DNA of 64,000 nt from Escherichia coli (lineage in GTDB: Bacteria > Pseudomonadota > Gammaproteobacteria > Enterobacterales > Enterobacteriaceae), in NCBI RefSeq assembly GCF_001677475.2, contig NZ_CP015229.1. One strand, 5' to 3'. A model generated the notes under the pieces. The model made no database searches and was not told the origin of the DNA. It saw nothing but the letters and a program-made list of their open reading frames with translations. Position numbers and translations under genes: made by a program. This document shows positions 26,238-52,385 of this stretch, in pieces. Each line of letters begins with the position of its first letter. Within the stretch, counting starts at the first letter, position 1.

Positions 26238-26636
26238 GTGGATTTCCTCAAAAGTCAGCAGGGCAAAAGCGCCAAAAAACGGCAGATTGCCGAAAAAGGC
26301 CGCAATTATACACAAAATCCCTGAGTTTGTCGGGGGTACTGCTGATTTTAGACGACGATCGTTTTCATTTGAAAGGAAACGCAAAAAGAAAATAATCTTT
26401 TTGCCTCCATTTATTATTTAAGATAAGGTTAATGCTCTACTTGTTCTTTTTTTAATTCAAATGATATTTTTATCTTTCTGACGTTTTAAACGTATCGGAA
26501 GATGTTATTTATTTTAATAAAAAAACACTCTAAATATAAAATTATTTCTTGCAGTAATTATAAAAGCCGAAAACAGAACTCAAAAACAATCTGGCTAAAT
26601 AAAAGTAACAAAATTTGCTTTAAGGAAGAATTTTCT

Positions 26637-30003: not shown

Positions 30004-31506
30004 ATGCTGAAAAGGAAAAAAGTAAAACCAATTACCCTTCGTGATGTCACCATTATTGATGACGGTAAACTGCGTAAAGCCATTACCGCAGCATCACTGG
30101 GTAATGCAATGGAATGGTTTGATTTTGGTGTTTATGGTTTTGTTGCTTACGCATTAGGTAAAGTTTTTTTCCCGGGGGCTGACCCCAGCGTGCAGATGGT
30201 TGCTGCACTTGCCACTTTCTCCGTTCCCTTTCTGATTCGACCGCTTGGCGGACTCTTCTTTGGTATGTTGGGCGATAAATATGGTCGCCAGAAGATCCTC
30301 GCTATCACTATTGTGATTATGTCGATCAGTACGTTCTGTATTGGCTTAATACCGTCCTACGACACGATTGGTATTTGGGCACCGATTCTGCTGTTGATCT
30401 GTAAGATGGCACAAGGTTTCTCGGTCGGCGGTGAATATACCGGGGCGTCGATATTTGTTGCGGAATACTCCCCTGACCGTAAACGTGGCTTTATGGGCAG
30501 CTGGCTGGACTTCGGTTCTATTGCCGGGTTTGTGCTGGGTGCGGGCGTGGTGGTGTTAATTTCGACCATTGTCGGCGAAGAGAACTTCCTCGACTGGGGT
30601 TGGCGTATTCCGTTCTTTATTGCTCTGCCGTTAGGGATTATCGGGCTTTACCTGCGCCATGCGCTGGAAGAGACTCCGGCGTTCCAGCAGCATGTCGATA
30701 AACTGGAACAGGGCGACCGCGAAGGTTTGCAGGATGGCCCGAAAGTCTCGTTTAAAGAGATTGCCACCAAACACTGGCGCAGCCTGTTGACATGTATTGG
30801 TCTGGTAATTGCCACCAACGTGACTTACTACATGTTGCTGACCTATATGCCGAGTTATTTGTCGCATAACCTGCATTACTCCGAAGACCACGGGGTGCTG
30901 ATTATTATCGCCATTATGATCGGTATGCTGTTTGTTCAACCGGTGATGGGCTTGCTGAGTGACCGTTTTGGTCGTCGTCCGTTTGTGCTACTTGGTAGTG
31001 TTGCCCTGTTTGTGTTGGCGATCCCGGCGTTTATTCTGATTAACAGTAACGTCATCGGCCTGATTTTTGCCGGGTTACTGATGCTGGCGGTGATCCTTAA
31101 CTGCTTTACGGGCGTTATGGCTTCTACCTTGCCAGCGATGTTCCCGACGCATATCCGTTACAGCGCGCTGGCGGCGGCATTTAATATTTCGGTGCTGGTT
31201 GCCGGTCTGACGCCAACGCTGGCGGCCTGGCTGGTCGAAAGCTCGCAGAATCTGATGATGCCTGCCTATTACCTGATGGTAGTGGCGGTGATTGGTTTAA
31301 TCACCGGCGTAACCATGAAAGAGACGGCGAATCGTCCGTTGAAAGGTGCGACACCGGCGGCGTCAGATATACAGGAAGCGAAGGAAATTCTCGTCGAGCA
31401 TTACGATAATATTGAGCAGAAAATCGATGATATTGACCACGAAATTGCCGATTTGCAGGCGAAACGTACCCGCCTGGTGCAGCAACATCCGCGAATTGAT
31501 GAATAA
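30004..31506 (+). CDS. proP: Proline/glycine betaine:proton symporter (osmosensing MFS transporter)
   Basis: ATG at 30004 gives MLKRKKVKPITLRDVTIIDDGKLRKAITAASLGNAMEWFDFGVYGF...; C-terminal coiled coil (...IDDIDHEIADLQAKRTRLVQQ). Confidence 0.93.
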   Translation: MLKRKKVKPITLRDVTIIDDGKLRKAITAASLGNAMEWFDFGVYGFVAYALGKVFFPGADPSVQMVAALATFSVPFLIRPLGGLFFGMLGDKYGRQKILAITIVIMSISTFCIGLIPSYDTIGIWAPILLLICKMAQGFSVGGEYTGASIFVAEYSPDRKRGFMGSWLDFGSIAGFVLGAGVVVLISTIVGEENFLDWGWRIPFFIALPLGIIGLYLRHALEETPAFQQHVDKLEQGDREGLQDGPKVSFKEIATKHWRSLLTCIGLVIATNVTYYMLLTYMPSYLSHNLHYSEDHGVLIIIAIMIGMLFVQPVMGLLSDRFGRRPFVLLGSVALFVLAIPAFILINSNVIGLIFAGLLMLAVILNCFTGVMASTLPAMFPTHIRYSALAAAFNISVLVAGLTPTLAAWLVESSQNLMMPAYYLMVVAVIGLITGVTMKETANRPLKGATPAASDIQEAKEILVEHYDNIEQKIDDIDHEIADLQAKRTRLVQQHPRIDE

Positions 31507-31518
31507 GCTGAAACGGAT

Positions 31519-31547
31519 GGCCTGATGTGACGCTGTCTTATCAGGCC
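31519..31547. repeat. REP-like palindrome / proP terminator
   Basis: ggcctgatgtgacgctgtcttatcaggcc immediately downstream of the proP stop. Confidence 0.7.
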
Positions 31548-31559
31548 AACAATTGAACT

Positions 31560-31576
31560 CTTAAGGTTCACTTAAT
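31560..31576 (+). promoter_or_regulatory. PmrA (BasR) box upstream of pmrR
   Basis: CTTAAG-gttca-CTTAAT, an exact YTTAAK-N5-YTTAAK direct repeat 45-60 bp upstream of the pmrR ATG. Confidence 0.65.
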
Positions 31577-31620
31577 CTCTGACGCGCATACTCTCCTCCA
31601 GGTTAACGGAGGAGAGTGCA

Positions 31621-31710
31621 ATGAAAAACCGTGTTTATGAAAGTTTAACTACCGTGTTCAGCGTGCTGGTGGTCAGCAGCTTTCTTTATATCTGGTTTGC
31701 CACGTTCTGA
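31621..31710 (+). CDS. pmrR: Small membrane protein PmrR (29 aa); below the ORF-track cutoff
   Basis: atg aaa aac cgt ... ttc tga translates to MKNRVYESLTTVFSVLVVSSFLYIWFATF, a single TM helix; GGAGG Shine-Dalgarno; 3' end overlaps the convergent basS by 25 bp. Confidence 0.75.
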   Translation: MKNRVYESLTTVFSVLVVSSFLYIWFATF

Positions 31711-32786
31711 TCTTTCTTCAGCCGTACCCAGGCCCGCGTGCCGGAAGTCTCTTGCCGGTTCTGCAGGAAAAACTGCCCGTGATGCAACTGTGTAATGCGG
31801 CTGACAATACTTAACCCCAGACCAATCCCGCCATAACGGCTGTCCATACGTACAAACGCTTTACTCAACTCCCCGCATTTACTCTCATCAATACCCGGTC
31901 CTTCATCTTCAACGGCCATTACCGCTCCGCCATCTTCTTGCAGCTTAATCATAATGTTGCTGCCTTGCGGGCTGTAACGATGGGCGTTTTCTACCAGGTT
32001 TCGCAATAACATCCGCAGCAGGGTTGCGTCACCCTGAACGGTGATGTCGGCGGCGCTCTCTGGCAATAGCAGGGTTTGCTGGCGCTGGTCGAGCATGGTA
32101 CTGAGTTCGTCATACGAGGGGAGAATGACCTCTTCCAGCAGTTTTACATGTTGATAATTACCGGAAGAAAATGACTGTCCGGCGCGCGCCAGTTGTAACA
32201 GCTGGGAGACGCTCTCCATCATCTGATCAAGCCGTGCCACTAACGGTGCTACATCAATGTGATGCGTTTTCGCCAGCAGTTCCAGATGCAAACGCACCCC
32301 CGCCAGTGGCGTTCGCAGTTCGTGCGCGACGTCAGCGGTAAACAACCTTTCGTTATCCAGCGTGTTGGTCAGGCGACTGACCAGATCGTTTAACGCCGAA
32401 ACCACCGCTTCGATTTCGAGGGTGGCGCTGTGAATGGCAATGGGCGTTAAGTTGTCGGCGGTGCGCGCTTCCAGCTCTTTTTGCAGCTCCGCCAGCGGGC
32501 GGGTGATGCGATGCACCGCCTGATAGCAGATAAATAGCGTCAGGCTGACCATAAAGACGCCGGGGACAATCAGGCTGGCGACCGCCTCGCGGATCTCGCG
32601 CATAATGTGGCGATCGTTGTTGCGATTGTCGCGTAGCGCCTGCTCAAACAGCTGAATCTGCTCGGTACTTTCATGCCATAGCCAGAAGACGCTGATCAAC
32701 TCAAACACCAACAAAATGGCCCCGATGGTCAATATCAGCCGTTGGCGCAGCGATATTGGTCGGCGCAGAAAACGCATCAAATTCAA
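31686..32786 (-). CDS. basS: Two-component sensor histidine kinase BasS (PmrB)
   Basis: 366-aa ORF with two TM segments, HAMP, H-box (ADVAHELRTPL) and ATPase domain; exact start codon uncertain. Confidence 0.88.
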   Translation of the reverse strand: MNLMRFLRRPISLRQRLILTIGAILLVFELISVFWLWHESTEQIQLFEQALRDNRNNDRHIMREIREAVASLIVPGVFMVSLTLFICYQAVHRITRPLAELQKELEARTADNLTPIAIHSATLEIEAVVSALNDLVSRLTNTLDNERLFTADVAHELRTPLAGVRLHLELLAKTHHIDVAPLVARLDQMMESVSQLLQLARAGQSFSSGNYQHVKLLEEVILPSYDELSTMLDQRQQTLLLPESAADITVQGDATLLRMLLRNLVENAHRYSPQGSNIMIKLQEDGGAVMAVEDEGPGIDESKCGELSKAFVRMDSRYGGIGLGLSIVSRITQLHHGQFFLQNRQETSGTRAWVRLKKDQNVANQI

Positions 32787-33455: not shown

Positions 33456-35095
33456 TCACTCACTCTCCTGCAAGTTTGCAGAATATCATCCGCAGCCTGG
33501 TAATACTTCGTCTCAACGCCAGTTAATCCCAATAGCGTGGAGAATAAATTGTCTTGTGAATAGTGTTGCGTTTGCGCCTGTTTTTGCAGGCAGTTCTGGT
33601 CAACCTGATACCGTTTTTGATAATCCTCCGACAGCCACAGCAGCATTGGCACCTGTTTTTGGCTATCCGGGGCGATGGCATAAGGCAGACCGTGCAGATA
33701 GATGCCATTTTCACCTAACGATTCACCGTGGTCAGAAAGATAAACCAGGCTGGTGGTAAATTTATCCTGATGTTCTTTCAGCAGATTAATCGCTTTATCA
33801 ACAATATAGTCGACGTAAACCAGCGTGTTGTCGTAAGTGTTCACCAGTTGCTCTTTGGTACAGGTCTGGATCTCATTGGTGTCGCAGGTTGGGGTAAATT
33901 TCCTGAACTGCGGCGGATAGCGGTTGTAATAGGTCGGACCGTGGCTGCCGATGGTGTGTAAGACAATCACGCCATCACCCTGCAGGTTATTGATGTACTC
34001 TTCCAGCCCGTGGAACAGCACTTCGTCATAGCATTCGCCGTTGATGCACTGACCAGGCAGATTCAGCGCGGTGACGTTCTGGTGAGGCACGCGGTCGCAG
34101 GCACCTTTACAGCCACCATCGTTGTCATTCCACAGCACGTTGATGCCCGCTCGCTGAATGATATCCAGCACGCCTTCCTGGTGCTGTGCCAGCTCTTCTT
34201 TGTAATGCTCACGCGGCATATCCGAGAACATACACGGTACTGAAACTGCCGTTGCCGTGCCGCAAGATGCGGTATTAGGGAAATAGACCACGTTATCTTT
34301 CGCCAATCGCGGGTTAGTTTCACGCGGGTAGCCGTTGAGGGAGAAGTTCTCCGCCCGCGAGGTTTCGCCGACAATCAGGATGGTCAAATTTTTACGTTTT
34401 TCGTTCTGCATTAACGGGTTGCGGTGCGCGTCTTCACCAATTCGCACCAGCGGCAGATTTGCCAGTCGCTGATGGGAGTACCATGACCAGCTGGCAACAA
34501 TGCTGTTAGAGGGGCTTAAGGACTTCACCAGCTCTTTGTTGTTGCGGAACAACGAGGCGTAGTCTTTATAAAACAGTGCGGCGACCAGCAAAATCAGCAG
34601 TACAGAAACCAGAATATTGGCTCCACGGAAAAGAACACTGCGCAGACGCGAGGTGGCAGGTTTGATTTTTATCCAGCAGGCAATCAGCGCAGCAAGCACG
34701 CCGCTGAATCCCAGCGTTAATAACATTTGCGGTGTCATCAGCGCATAACTTTCTGCCGGAGTGGTATCAATAATATTGGCAATCATCGAGCGGTCGATGA
34801 CGATGCCGTAAGTCATTATGAAATATTGTGCAGCCGCGCCAACCAGAATAAACAGGCAGGCCAGCGGTCGATTAAGCCATAAGAAAGAGCTTAGTGTCAG
34901 GACAATATTAATCACGCTGAAGGCGACGACCGGCATCGACAAGAAAACCAGTACGTTATGCAGCGAGTCCAGCGGCAGCGCCTGCAACACCTGTTTAAAA
35001 AAGGCAATATTCAGGCAGATAGAGATATAAAAAGCGGCCAACAATAGCCAGGCGAGTAAATTCAAAGAGGGTCTTTTTAGTAGGCGCTTCAACAT
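33452..35095 (-). CDS. eptA: Lipid A phosphoethanolamine transferase EptA (PmrC)
   Basis: 547 aa from the ATG at 35095 ([18 protein letters not shown]...); N-terminal TM helices plus sulfatase-like domain; overlaps basR by 4 bp. Confidence 0.9.
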
Positions 35096-35145
35096 CACGG
35101 TGTTTCCATCGAACAAAGTGCGCATATGCTCGCAAAGCAAAATTA

Positions 35146-35174
35146 AGCCAACCTTAAGTTCTTAAGGTTGGCTT
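35146..35174 (-). terminator. Palindromic terminator downstream of adiC
   Basis: aagccaaccttaag-ttc-ttaaggttggctt, a 13-bp perfect stem flanked by T-runs on both strands. Confidence 0.6.
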
Positions 35175-52088: not shown

Positions 52089-52385
52089 ATGGAAGGTAAA
52101 AACAAGTTCAATACTTATGTTGTTTCTTTTGATTATCCATCATCTTATTCCTCAGTGTTCTTAAGGTTAAGATCATTGATGTATGATATGAATTTCTCCT
52201 CTATCGTGGCTGATGAATATGGGATACCACGACAATTGAATGAAAATTCCTTCGCAATAACGACATCGTTAGCCGCAAGTGAAATCGAAGATTTAATCAG
52301 GCTTAAATGCTTAGACTTACCGGATATTGATTTTGACCTCAACATTATGACAGTTGATGACTATTTCCGTCAGTTTTACAAGTAG
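52089..52385 (+). CDS. ghoS: Type V antitoxin GhoS (sequence-specific endoribonuclease)
   Basis: 98-aa ORF MEGKNKFNTYVVSFDYPSSYSSVFLRLRSL..., directly upstream of ghoT. Confidence 0.85.
   Translation: MEGKNKFNTYVVSFDYPSSYSSVFLRLRSLMYDMNFSSIVADEYGIPRQLNENSFAITTSLAASEIEDLIRLKCLDLPDIDFDLNIMTVDDYFRQFYK

Follow-up and report, generated by a model that had tools for sequence, protein, structure and literature searches.

The 29-codon gene pmrR lies between proP and the sensor-kinase gene basS (pmrB), behind an exact PmrA box, and its Shine-Dalgarno (SD) sequence is buried in a perfect hairpin. This arrangement raises the question of which RNA the hairpin acts on. An earlier note on this DNA proposed that it controls the translation of pmrR itself, which would place it in the 5' untranslated region of the PmrA-driven mRNA. 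We asked whether the position of the promoter, the conservation of the hairpin and the published RNA ends agree with that proposal, or whether they point to RNA that enters pmrR from the gene upstream.

The pmrR locus

The analysis covered a window of 64,000 nucleotides of Escherichia coli DNA, and the features to which we refer are the following, in window coordinates.

30004..31506, + strand: proP coding sequence (open reading frame and annotation; MG1655 4330502-4332004, mapped allowing a 3-nt indel)
31519..31547, + strand: REP-like hairpin after the proP stop, GGCCTGAT...ATCAGGCC, without a U-tract (sequence)
31552..31717, + strand: match to Rfam RF02052, STnc630 (178.5 bits; gathering threshold 55)
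31560..31576, + strand: PmrA (BasR) box, CTTAAGgttcaCTTAAT, an exact match at a fixed distance from the small open reading frame in about 57 loci
31587..31592, + strand: -10-like hexamer CATACT, 10 nt after the box, whose last three bases open the left arm of the hairpin
31590..31599, + strand: left (anti-SD) arm, ACTCTCCTCC (sequence, folding, comparison)
31600..31601, + strand: predicted PmrA-dependent start, the first purines past an all-pyrimidine tract (MG1655 4332095-6)
31608..31617, + strand: right arm, GGAGGAGAGT, including the SD GGAGG at 31608-31612 (sequence, folding)
31617..31625, + strand: mapped 3' ends of sense RNA just past the hairpin (Term-seq, TRS)
31621..31710, + strand: pmrR coding sequence, a 29-amino-acid membrane peptide and LpxT inhibitor (open reading frame, NCBIfam, RefSeq annotation)
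31664..31678, + strand: small stem inside the pmrR coding sequence, followed by GCTTTCTTTA; terminator-like, and also in the STnc630 consensus structure
31686..32777, - strand: basS (pmrB) coding sequence, convergent with pmrR and overlapping it by 25 bp (open reading frame)
31973, + strand: Rho-dependent termination region antisense to basS (MG1655 4332468; PMC7815308 supplementary file 2)

The 29-codon frame that the earlier note had named pmrR is present in the list of open reading frames at 31621-31710 (+). It belongs to the NCBIfam PmrR family NF033224, with 72.7 bits against a cut-off of 30, and RefSeq names it 'LpxT activity modulator PmrR'. The claimed 25-bp overlap of its 3' end with that of basS, on the opposite strand, was found in the same list at 31686-31710. 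Of 5426 complete E. coli genomes, 5408 contain the locus, which is annotated proP / pmrR / pmrB; box, hairpin and open reading frame are nearly invariant in three aligned strains. proP is the co-directional upstream neighbour of pmrR and the source of read-through RNA.

The REP-like hairpin behind the proP stop is a weak naRNA4 match, below threshold, and no RNA 3' end is listed at 31519..31547 in the two 3'-end sets that could be searched. Beside it (31519-31550), this strain carries 3 additional nt (CAA) relative to most E. coli genomes, and the best identity of a 401-nt query among complete E. coli genomes was at most 98.5%.

The Rfam match to STnc630 is full length, and the Rfam consensus structure already contains an 11-bp hairpin. 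The Salmonella 'sRNA' STnc630 is therefore the pmrR locus, and the region encodes PmrR. Noise aside, STnc630 was the only Rfam family at E <= 10, and no cis-regulatory family (riboswitch, thermometer or leader) was found. In Salmonella, STnc630 is enriched with Hfq, and an hfq mutant has about 6-fold less of it (PMC5001712 supplements), a hint that Hfq or an sRNA may take part in its control. The PmrA box, the convergent overlap with pmrB and a box-deletion phenotype in E. coli have been published (PMC8129183, Fig. 7), the last in strain WD101, where removal of the pmrR PmrA box gave a PmrR-loss phenotype (PMC8129183); the overlap was noted by Xu et al. 2021 as well (PMC8004244). Among open-access full texts (subscription papers lay outside the scope) we found none linking pmrR with SD sequestration or an anti-SD role, and a full-text search for STnc630 returned no papers.

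The hairpin, the promoter and the predicted start of pmrR

The hairpin is as the earlier note had drawn it: nine perfect pairs between ctctcctcc (31591-31599) and ggaggagag (31608-31616) around the loop aggttaac, to which A31590:T31617 adds a tenth. The SD GGAGG (31608-31612) lies inside it, 8 nt before the ATG at 31621. In a 64-nt context the hairpin folds with -22.7 kcal/mol (z = -3.7), and 1 of 200 shuffled sequences was as good. Opening the stretch from the SD to the AUG was computed to cost 19 to 21 kcal/mol in RNAs that start at or before 31590, versus 5.7 kcal/mol in RNAs that start at or after 31597. The same comparison across 46 distinct loci of other genomes gave means of 16.2 for the long and 5.8 for the short RNA, with a gap of more than 5 kcal/mol in 40 of the 46. 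An intrinsic (Rho-independent) terminator was considered and rejected: a stem is present, but it lacks a U-tract, its tails being GUGCAAUGAAAA on the + strand and AUGCGCGUCAG on the - strand, and the terminator scan left it uncalled.

For comparison, we inspected the DNA downstream of basS in 80 loci from different species. The exact box occurs in 50 of them, and 7 further loci have GTTAAT as the second half-site. About 57 of the 80 share one layout, consisting of the box, 10 nt (11 in one locus), the hexamer nAnAcT, a pyrimidine-rich anti-SD arm, a loop of 4 to 12 nt, the SD arm, 0 to 5 nt and the ATG of a PmrR-like small open reading frame of 28 to 30 codons. The sole boxed locus outside this layout, in a Pantoea sp. 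(L061), keeps the box and the small frame and is missing the anti-SD arm. In five loci (L011, L014, L016, L037 and L082) uvrB and basS converge directly, with neither a pmrR frame nor a PmrA box between them, so that pmrR was lost, or never gained, in parts of the family. The 25-bp overlap was ruled out as a conserved feature, since the overlap of the coding sequences ranges from -8 to +57 nt among genera; what these loci conserve is the tight convergent arrangement rather than the 25 bp.

The box itself, CTTAAG and CTTAAT around gttca, is read directly at 31560-31576, as had been claimed. Only two exact matches to YTTAAK-N5-YTTAAK occur in the 64-kb window, the other being at 35142-35158 on the - strand, before eptA. 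There, CTTAAGGTTGGCTTAAT is followed after 10 nt by GAGCAT (35095-35158, -), which is the geometry of the pmrR promoter. Sites with one mismatch to the box lie at 26417-26433 (+) and 52291-52308. The likely start of eptA (MLKRLL...) is 35095, rather than the TTG upstream at 35140 given in the list of open reading frames.

At characterized promoters, PmrA boxes take the place of the -35 element (PMC10570014). The PhoB site of pstS spans -41 to -25 and lies 4 bp upstream of the pmra-box (PMC10570014), from which we derive a position of about -37 to -21 for the pmra-box of pbgP, and a PmrA footprint has its edge at -19/-22 relative to an S1-mapped start (PMC2565834). Judged by its sequence, the pmrR promoter fits this geometry, with the box in the -35 position and a -10 hexamer at the proper spacing. 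A scan of the pmrR region for the sigma-70 consensus called no promoter, as expected for an activator-dependent promoter that has no -35 element. A2 and T6 of the hexamer do not vary in any of the 43 distinct sequences aligned, including those in which A2 lies outside the stem (Escherichia, Klebsiella).

This geometry bears directly on where the PmrA-driven RNA begins. Since the hexamer occupies 31587-31592 and is followed by seven pyrimidines (31593-31599), A31600 or G31601 is the expected +1, 8 to 9 nt after the hexamer and within the loop. Among 47 distinct loci, 35 have a purine 7 nt past the hexamer, and a start at that distance would leave 0 to 2 nt of the left arm in 45 of the 47. The pmrR start at about 31600 is thus a prediction from promoter geometry and conservation. 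An mRNA starting in the loop would carry the SD arm only and would form no hairpin. The supplements of the SMRT-Cappable-seq study and of Srikumar 2015 contain no entry for a pmrR 5' end. The earlier note had stated that a transcription start past the left arm would refute its proposal; from the overlap of the hexamer with that arm and the pyrimidine tract, such a start is probably what occurs.

A model built on that proposal, in which a hairpin in the 5' untranslated region throttles the PmrA-driven pmrR mRNA or makes its translation conditional, for example on temperature, Hfq or an sRNA, draws on several observations. The hairpin is strong and occludes the SD, its stem covaries with wobbles on the sense strand (see below), STnc630 is Hfq-associated and reduced in the hfq mutant, and the 5' boundary of the Rfam model lies 8 nt before the box. 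If transcription began at or before 31590, however, the box would come to lie at about -14 to -30, in conflict with replacement of the -35 element and with the footprints, whose edges are at about -20. The hexamer with its invariant A2 and T6, 10 nt past the box, overlaps the left arm, and 31593-31599 offers no purine to start on. As for the Rfam boundary, it cannot mark a PmrA-dependent start because it lies upstream of the activator site, and it fits an RNA derived from proP better. We therefore regard this reading as unlikely. Of the translational control that had been suggested, the burial of the SD and, with moderate support, selection on the stem as sense RNA are upheld, whereas throttling of the PmrA-driven mRNA is disfavored by the promoter geometry.

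The strand on which the hairpin is probably selected

The stem covaries across at least 10 genera, with arms such as CTCTCCTCC/GGAGGAGAG, CTATCCTCA/TGAGGATAG, CTGCCTTC/GGAGGGCAG and CTCTCCCA/TGGGAGAG. Among 43 distinct aligned sequences, 81.4% of the cells were paired, compared to 35 to 53% when the partners were slid. The covariation score was 0.255 versus 0.160 ± 0.014 in shuffled alignments, none of which reached the observed value (0/500). One stem pair occurs as AU in 16, CG in 11 and GC in 5 sequences, the two G's of the SD are invariant in the alignment, and RNAalifold recovered the core of the helix.

The repeat is a palindrome, and its pairs can be scored in a strand-neutral manner, as an A.C on the pmrR-sense strand is a G.U on the basS-sense strand. 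Across 47 distinct hairpins we counted 439 Watson-Crick pairs, 35 sense-strand G.U, 16 A.C and 9 other mismatches. Most A.C cases occur in the outer part of the stem, where they face the A of the -10-like hexamer. The asymmetry between sense G.U and A.C is thus about 2:1, in counts that are phylogenetically non-independent. RNAfold energies did not separate the strands significantly (mean -13.0 versus -12.0, p = 0.17). Overall, the wobble pattern moderately favors a structure in pmrR-sense RNA, and the hairpin seems, with moderate support, to be under selection as an RNA structure of the sense strand.

This bears on a second explanation, namely that the repeat acts mainly on the opposite strand, as a 3'-terminal stem-loop (stabilizer or terminator) of the eptA-basRS mRNA. 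In E. coli the palindrome is perfect and the antisense RNA folds equally well, and basS is the one neighbor common to all loci. Furthermore, a construct with pmrB and 86 nt of downstream DNA gave about 315-fold less pmrB mRNA and no colistin resistance (PMC8004244), while constructs with 103 or 126 nt restored resistance (PMC8004244). In contrast, the wobbles in the SD part of the stem favor the sense strand, the antisense hairpin is much weaker in several genera (for example -2.6 versus -10.5 and -2.1 versus -9.0), and the minus strand has no U-tract. No minus-strand 3' end was found here in the two datasets searched, in which expression was low at this place, and the half-life of the pmrB mRNA was unchanged (Xu 2021, PMC8004244).

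The constructs of Xu 2021 also allow another reading once their ends are placed on the window, by our own mapping. The +86 cut falls at 31600, the predicted pmrR start, and removes the anti-SD arm. The +103 cut falls at 31583, 4 nt upstream of the -10 hexamer, and keeps both hexamer and hairpin, and the +126 cut falls at 31560, the first base of the PmrA box. The constructs therefore differ in elements of the pmrR promoter as well as in the hairpin: the +103 and +126 cuts bring back the -10 hexamer and the PmrA box of pmrR as well. Altogether we consider a main function on the basS strand improbable, and slightly more so than a hairpin acting on the PmrA-driven mRNA, but an element of the basS 3' untranslated region may be an additional role of the repeat.

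Read-through RNA and a proposed shield on the ribosome-binding site

RNAs that carry both arms are documented by published 3' ends. Term-seq places one at MG1655 4332116, window position 31621 (PMC7815308 supplementary files 1 and 3), and TRS places a peak at 4332117, window position 31622 (PMC10687069 supplementary file 4). Both ends are 4 to 5 nt after the stem, indicating that longer RNAs from proP carry the hairpin with both of its arms. According to the TRS authors, transcripts of the upstream gene are seen by SEnd-seq to terminate inside pmrR (PMC10687069), and a TRS 'primary' 3' end for pmrR is at 4332305, about window position 31810. Because neither strand has a U-tract and the Rho region lies farther on, the 3' end at the hairpin is most simply that of proP read-through RNA, either trimmed by exonuclease or weakly terminated.

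At the Rho-dependent region, reads dropped from 248 to 32 without bicyclomycin and went from 400 to 443 with it (p = 2.7e-37; PMC7815308). Under non-inducing conditions sense RNA thus still crosses pmrR, with 248 reads upstream of the Rho site. pmrR-basS is also listed as a convergent excludon by ExcludonFinder (PMC12288877). This listing and the Rho region antisense to basS document convergent, overlapping transcription of the two genes; the antisense interplay that the earlier note had suggested may follow from it.

In 49 of 50 loci the gene upstream of pmrR points in the same direction as pmrR, and it comes in two unrelated contexts. Escherichia has proP at this position, and uvrB takes its place in Klebsiella, Raoultella, Kosakonia, Kluyvera, Pseudocitrobacter, Phytobacter and Trabulsiella (e.g., L043, L062, L065 and L084). 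The first PmrA half-site of Kosakonia includes the uvrB stop codon TAA, so that uvrB transcripts must enter the pmrR promoter. In Phytobacter massiliensis (L013) the SD hairpin is followed by TTTTTT and then the ATG; it resembles a genuine intrinsic terminator in which the 3' arm serves as the ribosome-binding site.

These observations could be explained by a hairpin that is a mere 3'-end structure of the upstream mRNA (proP or uvrB), a weak terminator or exonuclease block, in which the SD is incidental. The ends mapped 4 to 5 nt after the stem and the terminator-like Phytobacter locus fit this explanation. But the hairpin stays in register with the box, the -10 hexamer and the pmrR ATG whichever of the two genes lies upstream, and the SD is always within the right arm. 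Moreover, loci in which uvrB is followed by a terminator of its own retain the hairpin, and most genera have no U-tract. We find it quite unlikely that a 3'-end function is all there is; a role at the upstream 3' end agrees with the model that we propose and probably belongs to it.

We propose that the hairpin is a fold-back shield like that of IS10, so that pmrR is translated only from its own PmrA promoter, and we hold this to be the probable explanation, if by a modest degree. PmrA bound at 31560-31576 would substitute for the -35 element. The -10-like hexamer at 31587-31592 overlaps the beginning of the left arm, and transcription would begin at about A31600, inside the loop. The PmrA-dependent mRNA would thus have a leader of about 21 nt with the SD arm only and would be freely translated. 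RNA entering from the co-directional upstream gene (proP in Escherichia, uvrB in most other genera) would instead carry both arms, and on this read-through RNA the hairpin would close the SD, so that no PmrR is made. The hairpin would double as a stable 3' end of the upstream mRNA. By further extension, the untranslated RNA past the hairpin would be open to Rho, which would limit antisense transcription into basS. The start position and the difference in translation between the two classes of transcript are the parts of this model that we infer.

Two observations among the compared loci bear on the shield in opposite senses. The Pantoea locus without the anti-SD arm (L061) is the only one with a divergent upstream neighbor, and we count it as support, from one case only. 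Conversely, in several genera a strong terminator distinct from the hairpin follows uvrB ahead of the box; read-through should be lower in these and the hairpin is nevertheless kept, which counts against the shield. The sense RNA that crosses pmrR under non-inducing conditions is a further point against it.

A reason to insulate pmrR from read-through is plausible. PmrR balances resistance to polymyxin against resistance to bile (deoxycholate) by inhibiting LpxT, and loss and excess both impair growth. Indeed, PmrR expressed from a plasmid without stress impaired growth, and PmrR-mediated inhibition of LpxT led to deoxycholate sensitivity (PMC8129183). If the shield is real, it would explain how a gene of 29 codons stays silent although its upstream neighbour is well expressed and a sensor-kinase operon adjoins it on the other side, why colistin resistance from pmrB clones depends on defined lengths of downstream DNA, and why 'STnc630' looks like an sRNA. 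It would also exemplify, outside transposons, a promoter that initiates transcription from within an anti-SD hairpin.

A more elaborate version, to which we give little credence, is a two-way switch. With PmrA off, the SD would be closed on proP or uvrB read-through RNA, Rho would be recruited and basS would be shielded from antisense transcription; with PmrA on, a translated pmrR mRNA would run antisense into basS. Such a switch would amount to RNA-level negative feedback on the sensor kinase, atop the PmrR-LpxT-Fe3+ loop. The palindrome would then also cap the 3' end of the basS mRNA, and the need for at least 103 to 126 nt of downstream DNA in the pmrB constructs (Xu 2021) would be explained.

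Comparison with known systems

The PmrA box and the pmrR/basS overlap of E. coli were already known, as was the hairpin in the STnc630 consensus. New are the fixed layout, the covariation of the stem, the overlap of hexamer and arm with a predicted start in the loop, the placing of published 3' ends just past the hairpin, the computed difference in the cost of opening the SD, and the proposed reassignment of the hairpin to read-through RNA.

The closest known system is that of IS10/Tn10, for which Davis, Simons and Kleckner reportedly described protection from external promoters by fold-back inhibition in 1985 (cited in PMC13181058). In IS10, a sequence upstream of the element's own transcription start pairs with the ribosome-binding site; only incoming transcripts are silenced, as native ones do not have the 5' arm. 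pmrR resembles IS10 in that energy computations close the ribosome-binding site on the long RNA and leave it open on the predicted native RNA, and in that read-through RNAs with both arms exist in vivo, as seen from published 3' ends. It differs from IS10 in being a chromosomal regulatory small-protein gene rather than a transposase gene, and its 5' arm shares bases with the -10 of a promoter that depends on an activator, PmrA. In addition, the upstream mRNA has its 3' end at the pmrR hairpin, and the pmrR start is a predicted one. In IS200, stem-loops likewise stop impinging transcripts and occlude the ribosome-binding site (PMC3196728).

Compared to the other PmrA promoters (pbgP/arnB, ugd and eptA/pmrC), that of pmrR is similar in having the box in place of the -35 element and the -10 about 10 nt downstream, but only pmrR has its -10 and its predicted start embedded in an anti-SD hairpin. 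STnc630 is the same locus, treated by Rfam as an sRNA gene, whereas the region encodes PmrR. Finally, pmrR-basS is similar to convergent excludons in that the two transcripts overlap and a Rho-limited sense RNA runs antisense to basS. In this pair, however, mutual repression is at most a possibility, and the length of the overlap between the coding sequences varies among genera.
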